DNA of 64,000 bases from Pachysolen tannophilus NRRL Y-2460 (lineage: Eukaryota). Where the stretch lies: NCBI GenBank assembly GCA_001661245.1, contig KV454014.1, positions 698,954-762,953 on the forward strand, written 5' to 3'. The translations under genes were made by a program, and so were the position numbers. A model generated the notes under the pieces. The model was not told the origin of the DNA. It did not search any database and was given only the letters and a program-made list of their open reading frames with translations. Shown here piece after piece: positions 7,934 through 40,416 of the stretch; position 1 is the stretch's first letter, and each line of letters opens with the position of its first letter.

Positions 7934-9037
7934 CTATCTATAAAATGCTTCCTTAATAGCGTCAGTTGAATCCTTGATCAATTGTTTACTCTTTTCAAGG
8001 TATTTGTCTAAAACCATCATTGTATGCAGTACTCCTTGGTAAATCATAATTTTTGTAGGAACACCATTCTTGATCAATTTTCTAGCGTACAGTTCAGCTT
8101 CTGACCTTAAGATATCACACTCAGCACAGGCAATGAAACATGGAGGTAACCTGGCAAAGCTTTCATCTGGAAAAAACAACGGACTTGCTTCTGGTTTCAC
8201 TTCATCTTCGTATCCATTAGGTAGATATAATTTTCTGAACCAAATCATCTTTTCAGGAGTCAATTGCAGAGTATAATAATTTTCGTCCCATGATTTTTCA
8301 CTTTGTGGTGAAGCTGTATTATCAGTGACAGGAACAACTAACATTTGGAAACAAACAGGGGGAAATTTTTGAGAAAGAGAAAAAGAATAACTAGCAAACT
8401 TTTGAGTAACGGAAGCAGTTATATTTCCACCAGCAGATGAACCAGCAACGCATATCTTTGTAATATCAATATCGACACCCAATTCACTATCTTCTTTTTC
8501 CCCATGTTCAAATACATATAACAAACTTTCAAATCCATCCTCAAGACATGCAGGAAATGGATTCTCCGGGGCAAGCCTATACTCAACACTTATAACAACA
8601 CACCTTGATAACTCAGCGATATGAGTACAGAAAGAGTTTTCAGTATTTATATCCCCTAACACCCATCCACCACCGTGAAACCATACCGTTACTGGCCAGC
8701 CATTATATCCTGGTTGTTCACCTTTGGGAATAAATACTCTTGCTGGAATTGGGGATTGAGCCTCAGTATACTTTCTTGGGATTTCAATATCAAAAATTTT
8801 GGCCATCAGCAACAGTTCACTCTCACCTATTACATCTTCTAAACCTCTATTCACTCTTAAAGGATATCTGCTAGAATACGCTATAGTTGGATCATTAAGA
8901 AAATGTTCCTCATACAACTTGACATATGCAGGATCAAACTTTTCAATCATAGAAGGATGAATAGGATAAGGCGGCTCAGGAATACTTTCTGGCCATGAAT
9001 AATCTTCATTTAGTTTTACGTTGCTGTAATATGACAT
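7934..9037 (-). CDS. Alpha/beta-hydrolase, hormone-sensitive-lipase-like esterase
   Basis: HGGGW oxyanion motif, YRLAPE, GSSAGG nucleophile elbow, and catalytic D (CDILR) and H near the C-terminus. Confidence 0.88.
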   Translation of the reverse strand: MSYYSNVKLNEDYSWPESIPEPPYPIHPSMIEKFDPAYVKLYEEHFLNDPTIAYSSRYPLRVNRGLEDVIGESELLLMAKIFDIEIPRKYTEAQSPIPARVFIPKGEQPGYNGWPVTVWFHGGGWVLGDINTENSFCTHIAELSRCVVISVEYRLAPENPFPACLEDGFESLLYVFEHGEKEDSELGVDIDITKICVAGSSAGGNITASVTQKFASYSFSLSQKFPPVCFQMLVVPVTDNTASPQSEKSWDENYYTLQLTPEKMIWFRKLYLPNGYEDEVKPEASPLFFPDESFARLPPCFIACAECDILRSEAELYARKLIKNGVPTKIMIYQGVLHTMMVLDKYLEKSKQLIKDSTDAIKEAFYR

Positions 9038-9400: not shown

Positions 9401-10807
9401 TCAAACTTTTTCGAAATAACTATATAAGCACTTGTAGTTGAATTTCAAATCATAAATGATCTTATCAACTTTCTTATAACCTTTGACGTTGCAGTGTATT
9501 AATTTCAAAAGCTCTTCTTCATTGGCACTGGGGCCACATTCACTCATATAAACCAAGCAAAATTTCCCTGGTTTGAAAATTTTCAATACTTTGTTCATGA
9601 TTTCAACTTTAGAAATCTTTGAAGGAACATTTGTTTCAAATGAAGCATATGACCAACCTTGTTCGGGGGTAACATGCAAAGTATAATAAAATTTACCATC
9701 AATGATGGAATTCGATGAGAATCCGCATGGTTGAAATGAAAAAGCATCGTGTTTATCATCTTCATCCAGTTGATGCTCATAATAATCAGAACCAGCCTCA
9801 CCTCCTATAACATCTCTTTTTTGGAAAATTGAATTCAATCCCGTCTTTGCCATGGTTTTAAGACCAAGCAAATGACCAAAATCCTGGTATTCTTCATCCA
9901 TATCAGGAAAATCATTGGTAAAATTTGAAGAAATGAATTTTGGAGTCTCATAAGGAGAAAGATCAGTCATCAATAACTCAAAAGTCTCATCACTACCATT
10001 ACCATTGTTATCCTCATTAGCACTACATCTATAACACATATTGCCACTAATTGAGGAAGGTGGAGATAATGGACAGCATGATTCAAGATGATGACGGTTA
10101 ATGTTAACATTAACATCTTCTTGATCATCTCCATCATCATCCACTTGTTGTTCGCCAACACCTTGATAACAATTTTTCTTGAACCCATTGTCAACACCAT
10201 TGATATATAAATACCAATGATCATTGCTCAAATCGCCCACGACATAAGCTTTTGAAGAGGATTTATCAAAATATTTATTTAAATAATTGACCTCATTTGC
10301 CCAAGATTGATGAACTTCCTTTTGCCTGTCTGGAAACATAAATGAACGTCTAGAATAAAAAATTCTATAAACTGACGAGGAAGGATTCCAATTGATATAT
10401 TTCTCAGCAAGTTCAAATAATCTTTGTAAACAAGAAAGAGTTGTTGTAGTGCCACAAGTTTTCAAAATCAACTTGTGTGGGAAAACAAACAATGAAGACT
10501 CGGAAAGTAAATAACCATCCATTTCATTTGAAGAAATCTTGGATAAAATCTTACAATTAACCAAGTCCAATAGCAGTTCAATCTCATGTAATGGAATTGA
10601 GCGTAAGCCCAATAACGCATTGCCATTGACATTGACATTATTGGTACTAATGTTGCTAGGAGAATCGGCAAACCAAATTTCTAATAATTTTTCAGGGCCT
10701 TCAAAAGCAGCTGTCGAATCCAAAGATGCAGAGATTTCATGGTTAATGAAATCACCTCTGATAATACTTGGTTCTGGTGAAATTAATGGTGCTGATGATG
10801 GCGCCAT
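9401..10807 (-). CDS. SPE2: S-adenosylmethionine decarboxylase proenzyme
   Basis: FEGPEKLLEIWF, the LLSESSLFV self-cleavage/pyruvoyl site, KTCGTT, PCGFSSN and TLHVTPE..SYASFE. Confidence 0.96.
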   Translation of the reverse strand: MAPSSAPLISPEPSIIRGDFINHEISASLDSTAAFEGPEKLLEIWFADSPSNISTNNVNVNGNALLGLRSIPLHEIELLLDLVNCKILSKISSNEMDGYLLSESSLFVFPHKLILKTCGTTTTLSCLQRLFELAEKYINWNPSSSVYRIFYSRRSFMFPDRQKEVHQSWANEVNYLNKYFDKSSSKAYVVGDLSNDHWYLYINGVDNGFKKNCYQGVGEQQVDDDGDDQEDVNVNINRHHLESCCPLSPPSSISGNMCYRCSANEDNNGNGSDETFELLMTDLSPYETPKFISSNFTNDFPDMDEEYQDFGHLLGLKTMAKTGLNSIFQKRDVIGGEAGSDYYEHQLDEDDKHDAFSFQPCGFSSNSIIDGKFYYTLHVTPEQGWSYASFETNVPSKISKVEIMNKVLKIFKPGKFCLVYMSECGPSANEEELLKLIHCNVKGYKKVDKIIYDLKFNYKCLYSYFEKV

Positions 10808-11067
10808 TCTATCAAAAAAAAAAATTGTTTTTTTGTTTGTTTGTTTTTTTTTTCTATGAAAAAGCTTTCAAGTCCCCCCAACTTTTTGTCTTTTCTTTGG
10901 GTTAACTAATTCACCTGCTGCTGATATGAACTTTTTCAGGTCTTCTCTATGGGCGGCAAACTGGATTCTTATAAAAGTTAATTATGAAAAAACGTCCTTC
11001 TAAAAATGATTTAAATTACAATTAAAAGGACCAACTCTCTGAAATAAGCAAATGGGTGTGAGTCGTG

Positions 11068-11240
11068 TTATCTAGGTCTGTATCATTCAAGCAAAAAAAA
11101 AAAAAAAAGTTAGTAAATGATCAATAATCACATTGAAGAGGTTTAATCTCAATTAAAAAAAAAAAGAAAAAATCCAATCGACTTGTGTATACTTACTTAG
11201 CTGGTCTGTTGAATCTGAAAGTTAATTTATCAATTGGCAT
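11068..11240 (-). promoter_or_regulatory. Intron-split upstream ORF in the SPE2 5' leader (MPIDKLTFRFNRPAKPR*); exons 11240-11197 and 11077-11068
   Basis: ATG at 11240, donor GTAAGT at 11196, perfect branch TACTAAC at 11115-11109, a polyU tract, and acceptor CAG ending 11078. No other AUG lies between the uORF stop and the SPE2 ATG. Confidence 0.7.
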
Positions 11241-11417
11241 ACGCTACAAATTATTCTTCTTTCAGTGTTAATAGAAATTTGAAAATGGTGACCTCTTTTC
11301 TTTTTTTCCTTTCTTTCGATCTCTCTTTTTAATCAATTATATTCTTTTGAAATAAAACCCGAAAGAAAAAAAAAAANAAAAAAGTAAAAGCAATTAAAAC
11401 AAGAAATTAAATTAAAA

Positions 11418-11883
11418 NNNNNNNNNNNNNNNNNNNNNNNNNNNNNNNNNNNNNNNNNNNNNNNNNNNNNNNNNNNNNNNNNNNNNNNNNNNNNNNNNNN
11501 NNNNNNNNNNNNNNNNNNNNNNNNNNNNNNNNNNNNNNNNNNNNNNNNNNNNNNNNNNNNNNNNNNNNNNNNNNNNNNNNNNNNNNNNNNNNNNNNNNNN
11601 NNNNNNNNNNNNNNNNNNNNNNNNNNNNNNNNNNNNNNNNNNNNNNNNNNNNNNNNNNNNNNNNNNNNNNNNNNNNNNNNNNNNNNNNNNNNNNNNNNNN
11701 NNNNNNNNNNNNNNNNNNNNNNNNNNNNNNNNNNNNNNNNNNNNNNNNNNNNNNNNNNNNNNNNNNNNNNNNNNNNNNNNNNNNNNNNNNNNNNNNNNNN
11801 NNNNNNNNNNNNNNNNNNNNNNNNNNNNNNNNNNNNNNNNNNNNNNNNNNNNNNNNNNNNNNNNNNNNNNNNNNNNNNNNNNN
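11418..11883. other. Assembly gap (N run)
   Basis: Run of N flanked by A/T-rich sequence. Confidence 0.99.
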
Positions 11884-12056: not shown

Positions 12057-13781
12057 TTAGAATATCCATGTTTTAACGTTATTAAAGATTTCCTTAGCGT
12101 TTTTCTTTTTATAATCTTCTGAATCTGTATCTGAATTTATTTGCAGTTCTTCAGCAATTTTAAAATGTTCATATTCATATTCTTCAATTTCTTTTAAACC
12201 AGAGACTAAATCCACTTCAGATGATTTACGGAAAGGAGTTCTCTTTATCACTTTCCAGAAAATGTAAATAGCAACATTGACAAAGATCATAATATAATAA
12301 AATATGAAATCTTCAACGCTCCACCATCCAGGTAAAAATACTGTATAACCTTGAACACCACATAAAACTAATAAGAAAAATGTAACGATATATGCGCTAT
12401 ATGGTTGGAACCATGACCTATACAGGTATGTTGATTTATCTATTCCTTGGGCTTTACATGCATGATAAAATGCAATATAAGTTACACCCATGTATAAATA
12501 ATTTAACATTTGAGATTTTGTACAAATTGAAGTAATATAGGTAAGTGCTGTTAATGATCCACCTGTACCTAATTCCATAAAGGATAAACATGCAAACAGT
12601 ATAACAACTAAGATACAAAAAATTGGAACACCACTACTGGTACAAATTTGGAAAAAAGCTGGAGCAAAACCTCTTTTTGAAAGTGAATATAATTGTCTTG
12701 AAGAACAAAAAAAATATGAATTACCAGCAGATAATGCTGATAACAATATTATCGCATTAACAATATCTGGCAATACCTTAATATTTAAATTCTCCATTGC
12801 AATGACATATGGAGATGCTGCGGCACTAGATTCACCTGCAGTATTCAGAGCTACTAAAGTTGGATTATTATAAGCAATTAATATACCAACAGATAATGCA
12901 CCACCAATATAAAATAAACATAATCTCCAAATAACTGTCTTAAAACAAGTTGATAAATTTTTTCTAACAGGGTAATGAGCCTCATTAGCAATCATACTTA
13001 TATATTCAGGACCAACAACAAAGAAATTTGCTTGGAAAAGAGCACCTAGCCACCCTTCAAATTTTCCTAATCCACCAGTTGTAACATAACCTGAACCAAA
13101 TGGATCTATTTTAAAATAACGAAATCCAAATGCATCATGAGCTGGATTACCACCACACATTGTTATTAAAGTGAAAAATAATAATCCCACACATAATATT
13201 AATTTCCCAATACTAAGCCAAAATTCACTTTCACCAAAATATTTAACGTTAAAAACGTTTATTGCAGTATAAAGTGCTATTATTATAGATATTGGTATTG
13301 CAGCAGAATAATCATCTCTCCAAAAATCTATTATAGAAGAAACTGCTGTAATTTCAAAAGGAATATAAAGTGCTTCCATCAAGAAAAAATTCCAACCTGC
13401 AGCACATTCAACAGCTTCATCTATACACCTTCCAGCCATCTCTACAAAAGGTGAAGGTGCAGGATATTGAACAACCATTTCTCCAACTGCTGAAGTTAAC
13501 AATAACATTACACATGTCCAAAATACAGTTGCTATTAGTAACCCTGCAGCACCACCTTTTATTAATCCAGTTGCAATAGTAACAAATAATCCTGTTCCAA
13601 TCGAACCACCTATTGCTATTAATTGTATATGCCTACTTTTTAAATGTCTCTTTGTTGTGAAATTTTTATCTAAAAATTTCTTTTCATGTGATTCCTTACC
13701 TGTTTCGGAAGAATTTTGATCAGAGATTGATCGACTACAAATTGAAATATCGATAACCGATCTATTTAATTTTGAATCCAT
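12057..13781 (-). CDS. Amino-acid/polyamine permease (YAT/APC family), Agp2-like
   Basis: LKSRHIQLIAIGGSIGTGLF, FGESEFW, SPYVIAM and SAGNSY..SSR motifs; multiple TM helices. Subfamily assignment is tentative. Confidence 0.85.
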   Translation of the reverse strand: MDSKLNRSVIDISICSRSISDQNSSETGKESHEKKFLDKNFTTKRHLKSRHIQLIAIGGSIGTGLFVTIATGLIKGGAAGLLIATVFWTCVMLLLTSAVGEMVVQYPAPSPFVEMAGRCIDEAVECAAGWNFFLMEALYIPFEITAVSSIIDFWRDDYSAAIPISIIIALYTAINVFNVKYFGESEFWLSIGKLILCVGLLFFTLITMCGGNPAHDAFGFRYFKIDPFGSGYVTTGGLGKFEGWLGALFQANFFVVGPEYISMIANEAHYPVRKNLSTCFKTVIWRLCLFYIGGALSVGILIAYNNPTLVALNTAGESSAAASPYVIAMENLNIKVLPDIVNAIILLSALSAGNSYFFCSSRQLYSLSKRGFAPAFFQICTSSGVPIFCILVVILFACLSFMELGTGGSLTALTYITSICTKSQMLNYLYMGVTYIAFYHACKAQGIDKSTYLYRSWFQPYSAYIVTFFLLVLCGVQGYTVFLPGWWSVEDFIFYYIMIFVNVAIYIFWKVIKRTPFRKSSEVDLVSGLKEIEEYEYEHFKIAEELQINSDTDSEDYKKKNAKEIFNNVKTWIF

Positions 13782-14570: not shown

Positions 14571-14957
14571 NNNNNNNNNNNNNNNNNNNNNNNNNNNNNN
14601 NNNNNNNNNNNNNNNNNNNNNNNNNNNNNNNNNNNNNNNNNNNNNNNNNNNNNNNNNNNNNNNNNNNNNNNNNNNNNNNNNNNNNNNNNNNNNNNNNNNN
14701 NNNNNNNNNNNNNNNNNNNNNNNNNNNNNNNNNNNNNNNNNNNNNNNNNNNNNNNNNNNNNNNNNNNNNNNNNNNNNNNNNNNNNNNNNNNNNNNNNNNN
14801 NNNNNNNNNNNNNNNNNNNNNNNNNNNNNNNNNNNNNNNNNNNNNNNNNNNNNNNNNNNNNNNNNNNNNNNNNNNNNNNNNNNNNNNNNNNNNNNNNNNN
14901 NNNNNNNNNNNNNNNNNNNNNNNNNNNNNNNNNNNNNNNNNNNNNNNNNNNNNNNNN
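14571..14957. other. Assembly gap (N run)
   Basis: Run of N. Confidence 0.99.
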
Positions 14958-36976: not shown

Positions 36977-37205
36977 NNNNNNNNNNNNNNNNNNNNNNNN
37001 NNNNNNNNNNNNNNNNNNNNNNNNNNNNNNNNNNNNNNNNNNNNNNNNNNNNNNNNNNNNNNNNNNNNNNNNNNNNNNNNNNNNNNNNNNNNNNNNNNNN
37101 NNNNNNNNNNNNNNNNNNNNNNNNNNNNNNNNNNNNNNNNNNNNNNNNNNNNNNNNNNNNNNNNNNNNNNNNNNNNNNNNNNNNNNNNNNNNNNNNNNNN
37201 NNNNN
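36977..37205. other. Assembly gap (N run) in the ERG3 promoter
   Basis: Run of N between (TA)n and poly-A. Confidence 0.99.
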
Positions 37206-39926: not shown

Positions 39927-40416
39927 NNNNNNNNNNNNNNNNNNNNNNNNNNNNNNNNNNNNNNNNNNNNNNNNNNNNNNNNNNNNNNNNNNNNNNNNNN
40001 NNNNNNNNNNNNNNNNNNNNNNNNNNNNNNNNNNNNNNNNNNNNNNNNNNNNNNNNNNNNNNNNNNNNNNNNNNNNNNNNNNNNNNNNNNNNNNNNNNNN
40101 NNNNNNNNNNNNNNNNNNNNNNNNNNNNNNNNNNNNNNNNNNNNNNNNNNNNNNNNNNNNNNNNNNNNNNNNNNNNNNNNNNNNNNNNNNNNNNNNNNNN
40201 NNNNNNNNNNNNNNNNNNNNNNNNNNNNNNNNNNNNNNNNNNNNNNNNNNNNNNNNNNNNNNNNNNNNNNNNNNNNNNNNNNNNNNNNNNNNNNNNNNNN
40301 NNNNNNNNNNNNNNNNNNNNNNNNNNNNNNNNNNNNNNNNNNNNNNNNNNNNNNNNNNNNNNNNNNNNNNNNNNNNNNNNNNNNNNNNNNNNNNNNNNNN
40401 NNNNNNNNNNNNNNNN
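39927..40416. other. Assembly gap (N run)
   Basis: Run of N followed by a long poly-A. Confidence 0.99.

Follow-up and report, generated by a model that had tools for sequence, protein, structure and literature searches.

A putative intron-split member of the fungal AdoMetDC leader-peptide class upstream of SPE2 in Pachysolen tannophilus

The S-adenosylmethionine decarboxylase (AdoMetDC) gene SPE2 of Pachysolen tannophilus NRRL Y-2460 is preceded, on its own strand, by a short upstream open reading frame (uORF) whose last codons are reached only if a predicted intron is removed. This raises the question of whether the uORF and its intron are genuine features of the SPE2 leader and, if they are, how they might act on SPE2 expression; an earlier note on this DNA had proposed a polyamine-sensing arrest peptide, possibly tuned by splicing. 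Throughout, the window is the whole stretch of DNA that was analysed (64,000 nucleotides, G+C 29.7%), and all coordinates for the uORF, the intron and the SPE2 leader refer to the minus strand. Read from the distal leader towards the gene, the features are as follows:

11241..11417, minus strand: leader upstream of the uORF, to the N run; 177 nt, no ATG
11240-11238, minus strand: ATG of the uORF
11197..11240, minus strand: uORF exon 1, 44 nt; MPIDKLTFRFNRPA followed by AA (ATG, 13 codons and two bases of Lys-15)
11078..11196, minus strand: predicted intron of the budding-yeast spliceosomal type, 119 nt
11196-11191, minus strand: 5′ splice site GTAAGT
11133 and 11086, minus strand: two intronic ATGs
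11115-11109, minus strand: branch site TACTAAC, its branch A (11110) lying 32 nt from the intron's 3′ end
11108-11093, minus strand: T16 tract, directly after TACTAAC
11080-11078, minus strand: 3′ splice site CAG
11068..11077, minus strand: uORF exon 2, A CCT AGA TAA (last base of Lys-15, Pro-16, Arg-17, stop)
11070-11068, minus strand: TAA stop of the uORF
11052..11067, minus strand: post-stop bases CACGACTCACACCCAT, conserved among relatives
10808..11067, minus strand: spacer from the uORF stop to the SPE2 start, 260 nt, AUG-free
9401..10807, minus strand: SPE2, S-adenosylmethionine decarboxylase proenzyme, 468 codons (Pfam SAM_decarbox PF01536, E 1.5e-114)

Translation with the 119-nt intron removed gives a uORF of 17 codons, MPIDKLTFRFNRPAKPR-TAA, versus MPIDKLTFRFNRPAK* for the unspliced frame, which ends as RPAK-stop directly after Lys-15. 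The intron-split uORF before SPE2, its GTAAGT, TACTAAC, T16 and CAG signals and its frame are thus as the earlier note had described them, and removal of the intron would indeed alter the C-terminus of the peptide as it had claimed. The predicted intron at 11196-11078 has the three signals by which budding-yeast introns were recognised (GTAWGT, TACTAAC and a YAG 10-60 nt downstream), and no second consensus 5′ splice site was found in the 177 nt upstream of the uORF. The uORF's start codon stands in a weak context (TAGCGT-ATG-C, with C at −3 and C at +4) and that of SPE2 in a strong one (GATAGA-ATG-G, with A at −3 and G at +4); both −3 bases, together with the 260 nt without AUG between the two frames, agree with what had been claimed for them. 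The spacer contains 0 ATGs against 4.9 in shuffled sequences (P(0) = 0.004), and the spliced leader, which measures 491 nt between the N run and the AUG of SPE2, contains 1 against the 9.2 expected in shuffles (P(≤1) = 0.0002), this sole ATG being the start of the uORF. The intron, with 2 ATGs against 1.9 expected by chance, shows no such depletion. Since the 177 nt upstream of the uORF are also free of ATG, positions 11241..11417 are probably part of the 5′ UTR. From the sequence we also considered whether the distant TAG at 10811-10809 could join uORF exon 1 in frame to SPE2. We rejected this, because the sole branch site is situated some 300 nt further upstream and the peptide needs the CAG at 11078 to acquire its conserved end.

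The peptide itself is not new, as its Pezizomycotina orthologue was published in 2010. A 17-codon AdoMetDC uORF with a consensus ending in ...LLRFLSKPAKPR-stop was described in 25 Pezizomycotina (Ivanov, Atkins and Michael 2010, NAR 38:353, PMC2811004); the full consensus is MSPKDLLRFLSKPAKPR-stop, located 405-441 nt before the main ORF (Suppl. Fig. 1A of the same paper), and, according to the accessible text, proline is always the penultimate residue of AdoMetDC uORFs outside vertebrates and the sea squirt. The window uORF shares with this family its place in an AdoMetDC leader on the same strand, a distance of several hundred bases to the main ORF, its 17 codons, the PAKPR-stop end with the penultimate proline and a pyrimidine at −3. 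It is the spliced form that matches the published uORF in length and end; the unspliced form does not. The Pro-x-stop ending that the earlier note had pointed out is borne out, as the RPAKPR-TAA present after splicing corresponds to the published family end KPAKPR-stop. The differences lie in the budding-yeast host, in the shorter spacer of 260 nt, in the long intron with its TACTAAC and in the middle of the peptide, where the window has KLTFRFNR and the Pezizomycotina DLLRFLSK, so that ungapped identity to the consensus, counted by eye, is 7/17. When the DLLRFL core is compared with DKLTFRF of the window, Leu-6 is shared and the RF is offset by one residue, and one metagenomic yeast locus, L012, has the intermediate ELLRRFINRAKPR. 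Taken on these sequence features, it is supported that the window uORF belongs in the AdoMetDC leader-peptide class whose penultimate residue is proline. As to novelty, the fungi named in the accessible text of the 2010 survey are Pezizomycotina only, the words 'intron' and 'splic' are absent from its main text, and one searchable supplement file contains none of 'intron', 'splic', Saccharomyc-, Candida, Pichia or Yarrowia (PMC2811004). When we searched the literature for this peptide, and for a uORF on SPE2 of any budding yeast, nothing beyond that survey came up. On the literature searched, the occurrence in Saccharomycotina and the shared intron position described below appear not to be in print, though Fig. 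4c of Li and Breaker 2017 may already depict a split uORF in N. crassa.

The earlier note had named a conserved peptide and a conserved intron position in the SPE2 upstream regions of relatives as a check of its proposal, and both were found. Using an alignment of 25 yeast SPE2 proteins as the query, we obtained 80 SPE2 loci from metagenome contigs and ran a finder that takes a methionine, 10-20 residues and KP[RK]-stop, either in one piece or divided between the second and third bases of the Lys codon; in the split form, any GT...AG intron of 30-500 nt is accepted. Over 142,207 nt of upstream sequence it gave 33 matches in 31 loci and the window, one of which (L045, 1049 nt upstream) was dropped as unlike the uORF family. 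As controls, the reverse complement of these upstream stretches and 110,026 nt of downstream sequence gave 0 matches each. The uORF is thus present in 31 of the 80 loci; among the 67 with at least 600 nt upstream it is found in 30 and absent from 37, some of these 37 having a broken SPE2 match. Of the 32 uORFs, window included, 11 run uninterrupted, whereas 21, those of 20 loci and of the window itself, are split; in all 20 split loci the intron sits at the window's position, after base 2 of the Lys-15 codon, with lengths of 48-257 nt when the window is counted. Three further loci stand outside these 20 split KPR loci or are incomplete: L014 shows exon 2 alone at a contig end, and the high-GC L071 (~2506-2640) and L074 (~2504-2640) have the usual split but a KYR-TAG end, in which Tyr replaces the penultimate Pro.

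The homologous uORFs resemble that of the window in more than their coding sequence. Their length is 17 codons in 28 of the 32, the window among them, the base at −3 is a pyrimidine in 32/32, and they stop at TAA (24) or TAG (8), never at TGA. The base after the stop is C in 31/32 and the next three are CAC in 22/32; the combination of a weak start with a C after the stop is a trait that we derived from the metagenomic loci and not from the text of the 2010 paper. In the relatives up to 586 nt separate the uORF stop from the point where the SPE2 match begins, as against 260 nt to the ATG in the window. To judge by these loci, a weak start context and an AUG-free spacer are supported as conserved traits of the family. 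Several of the locus peptides are identical to entries in a figure of the 2010 survey (PMC2811004), for which reason we call such loci Pezizomycotina-like or filamentous-fungus-like, an inferred label and not a taxonomic assignment. An Rfam scan of seven related loci found a tRNA and nothing else, and a scan of the window leader gave sub-threshold chance matches only.

Among the 17 distinct split uORFs, pS was 0.70 and pN 0.27, a pN/pS of 0.38, and over codons 6-17 pN fell to 0.18 and the ratio to 0.26. Leu-6 is invariant across six different codons in this set and Arg-8 nearly so across five. The fixity of Lys-15, Pro-16 and Arg-17 is not independent evidence, as it arises partly by construction from a finder that demanded KP[RK]-stop. 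Read from this pattern of substitution, purifying selection acts on the uORF peptide and not merely on the presence of an ORF. Support also goes to the view that the uORF and intron of this leader are genuine and under selection.

Two of the metagenomic loci carry the same leader peptide in other budding yeasts. In L006, with an SPE2 that shares 67% identity with the Saccharomycopsis crataegensis protein, the uORF is unsplit and reads MTKEDLLLISHPAKPR-stop; in L012, with an SPE2 at 59% identity to the protein from Trichomonascus ciferrii and 57% to the one from Blastobotrys, it is also unsplit and reads MDKELLRRFINRAKPR-stop. The ATG of the uORF is the sole ATG for 406 nt (L006) and 340 nt (L012) before SPE2. 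The L012 peptide bridges the filamentous-fungus core (ELLRRF) and the tail seen in Pachysolen (FNR-AKPR). The likeness extends past the stop codon: the sequence reads TAA-CACGACTCACACCCAT in the window and TAA-CACGACTCCCACCCAT in L012 (Dipodascales-like), and the 16 bases that follow the TAA (937-952 in L012) are identical at 15 of 16 positions. CACGAC recurs 3′ of the stop in several filamentous-fungus-like loci, and the conserved non-coding bases occupy the stretch of mRNA that a ribosome would cover during termination.

In Candida-type loci the arrangement is recognisable with another peptide. L002/L003, L004, L005, L009 and L010 (the SPE2 of L009 matches a Candida parapsilosis protein at 100% identity) have one uORF each, of 18-22 codons, with a pyrimidine at −3, a penultimate proline in an (E/D)PG-TAA end and an ATG-free spacer of 374-515 nt to SPE2. 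This uORF may be a diverged homologue, since its F-I-N-K-x-x-x-P-x-stop parallels F-L-S-K-P-A-K-P-R-stop; we found no paper on it. No comparable uORF was found in L001 or L007/L008, and SPE2 of S. cerevisiae is reported to have none (Mize and Morris 2001, as cited in the accessible text of PMC6961545).

The same leader peptide therefore survives in at least three budding-yeast lineages (Pachysolen, L006 and L012), so that the uORF is older than the split between Saccharomycotina and filamentous ascomycetes and was lost towards Saccharomyces. The shared intron position speaks for a single old intron that Pachysolen has kept and that has repeatedly been lost elsewhere, though an independent gain at the same base may also have happened. 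Such a position would be a rare dated marker within a regulatory uORF, and the yeasts offer systems for genetic tests of the penultimate-proline rule of AdoMetDC uORFs. The Pachysolen uORF would then have kept its intron in a lineage from which most introns have gone.

A uORF and an intron in the leader of the same gene are also known from Neurospora crassa, whose SAM decarboxylase leader combines an SDC hairpin with two uORFs and is spliced into two forms (Li and Breaker 2017, BMC Genomics 18:785, PMC5640933). According to the accessible text of that paper, alternative 5′ splice sites lie around the uORFs and one 3′ splice site lies within uORF 2, which fits the split in our Sordariomycete-like loci; hairpin mutants left the splice forms unchanged, and uORF-mediated control was left open. 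Unlike this leader, the window lacks the SDC hairpin (CCGAUAC...GUAUCGG), and without a second upstream 5′ splice site a form that skips the uORF as in N. crassa is not apparent in it. A regular expression for CCGATAC...GTATCGG found the hairpin in 27 loci. The motif has no Rfam entry, and our covariance model R1, built from 23 hairpin loci, matched neither the window nor any of the yeast loci L001-L012; with filters off, its best score in the window leader was 2.2 bits (E 2.3). In L013, L022, L025/L026, L031, L032/L033 and L053 the hairpin is present and a KPR-stop uORF is not recognisable; in L031 and L032 a stretch that resembles the uORF end continues without a stop.

Other polyamine-gene leaders suggest how the peptide could work. 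Mammalian MAGDIS and the plant AdoMetDC uORFs precede the same gene, and their logic is sequence-dependent repression through a termination stall (PMC2811004, accessible text). MAGDIS, unlike the window uORF, is an unrelated peptide without proline, 14 nt from the cap; the plant uORF shares the penultimate proline, but plants use two overlapping uORFs, tiny and small, with unrelated peptides (both from the same text). The Pro-x-stop end is shared with the S. cerevisiae HOL1 uORF, MLLLPS-stop, and with the AZIN1 uCC (Vindu 2021 and Ivanov 2018, via PMC10855120), where, according to the accessible part of that source, polyamines are proposed to act by inhibiting eIF5A-dependent termination. Here gene and peptide differ, and eIF5A would be a candidate factor at the SPE2 uORF.

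With these parallels in view, we consider it likely that the window holds the Pachysolen orthologue of the filamentous-ascomycete AdoMetDC uORF, with an old intron in the Lys-15 codon, and that it works by stalling ribosomes. The SPE2 mRNA would start upstream of 11240 and the 119-nt intron would be removed, after which part of the scanning ribosomes would translate the 17 codons from the weak-context AUG. The nascent RPAKPR, with its penultimate proline, and the poor termination context UAA-C would then slow termination, and the held ribosome would block scanning ribosomes and lower SPE2 translation, more so at high polyamines; the polyamine effect could pass through eIF5A, as for HOL1 and AZIN1 (accessible text of PMC10855120). 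Ribosomes that skip the uORF or resume after it would cross the 260-nt AUG-free spacer to the strong AUG of SPE2. We infer these four elements, namely splicing of the intron, translation of the uORF, the stall and its control by polyamines or eIF5A, from the systems compared above. What counts against the explanation as a whole is the divergence in KLTFRFNR, the 37 of 67 loci without the uORF, the KYR ends and the absent SDC hairpin.

The stall in particular has to be weighed against a uORF that is just as real and conserved and yet acts as a constitutive brake, through leaky scanning and reinitiation or through nonsense-mediated decay, with no polyamine sensing. In the papers cited we found no demonstration of polyamine sensing or ribosome arrest by a fungal AdoMetDC uORF (accessible texts of PMC5640933 and PMC6961545), and start-codon mutants of the S. 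pombe spe2 uORFs respond to spermidine much like the wild type (PMC6961545, accessible text). This result and the role left open in N. crassa count against the stall mechanism and in favour of a simple brake. Against such a brake, purifying selection acts on the peptide itself rather than on the mere presence of an ORF, and the conserved penultimate Pro and post-stop C are traits of termination-stalling polyamine uORFs (PMC2811004 and PMC10855120, as far as their accessible texts go), so that we hold this reading to be rather unlikely.

The intron invites the further thought that splicing is itself a control. If it had been kept since before the split of budding yeasts and filamentous fungi for this reason, splicing and the 16 post-stop bases could form a two-layer switch, in which splicing would decide whether the stalling KPR-stop peptide gets made; we think this very doubtful. 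More doubtful still is regulated splicing as the means by which SPE2 is tuned, with retention giving a PAK-stop uORF and two intronic AUGs and removal giving the stalling KPR-stop. The intron position common to Pachysolen and 20 filamentous-fungus-like loci speaks for it, as do the alternative 5′ splice sites around the SDC uORFs of N. crassa (PMC5640933, accessible text) and the window's unspliced frame, which ends directly after Lys-15. Nevertheless, the intron is lost in 11 of 31 loci with the peptide unchanged, and an immediate stop in the unspliced form, which follows from 5′ sites of the GTRA type, occurs in just 8 of 16 distinct split loci; on these two counts the suggestion of the earlier note that the module is tuned by splicing gains no support. 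The 177 nt upstream of the uORF offer no other consensus 5′ site to choose, and the N. crassa splice forms were unaffected by the hairpin mutants (PMC5640933, accessible text).

A short ORF that fell by chance beside chance splice signals and has no function would be compatible with part of the record. ORFs of 15-17 codons arise easily by chance, and the splice signals on their own are no more than chance: in the 64 kb, on both strands, there is 1 full GTA[AT]GT...TACTAAC...YAG candidate, against a mean of 2.67 in block-shuffled windows, so they are no rarer in shuffled sequence. The combination exceeds chance. Run on the whole 64-kb window the finder gave a single match, exactly the uORF in the SPE2 leader, compared with 5 matches in 30 shuffled windows, both strands counted. 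Moreover, the spliced product has the length and the PAKPR-stop end of the published family (PMC2811004, accessible text), and its intron position, start context and post-stop bases match those of relatives, which leaves a chance origin with practically no credit. Nor do we give any appreciable weight to an RNA structure or protein-binding site in which the reading frame is incidental: the non-coding conservation after the stop (15/16 bases with L012, CAC in 22/32) would suit it, but synonymous sites are near saturation while residues are fixed, the leader spacer showed no unusual folding, being no better than shuffles (z = 0.18), and the SDC hairpin model found no match in the window.

The SPE2 open frame of the window equals the P. 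tannophilus NRRL Y-2460 protein except for a 54-residue gap, one substitution, which falls within the gapped stretch of the alignment, and two Leu/Ala positions. The public gene model omits 54 residues of the open frame through an in-frame gap at about residues 206-262, in a low-complexity insert; as this insert is without yeast-type splice signals, the gap is probably a mis-called intron. The surroundings of the gene are these:

12057-13781, minus strand: amino-acid permease (PF00324), upstream neighbour of SPE2
7934-9037, minus strand: alpha/beta hydrolase (PF07859), downstream neighbour of SPE2
11418-11883, 14571-14957, 36977-37205, 39927-40416 and also 11377: N runs of the window

The first of these N runs lies in the presumed SPE2 promoter, so that the region of transcription start is only partly readable. 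At the two Leu/Ala positions, translation with the standard code gives Leu and the Pachysolen protein has Ala, a difference that we take to reflect the CUG-as-alanine code of Pachysolen.
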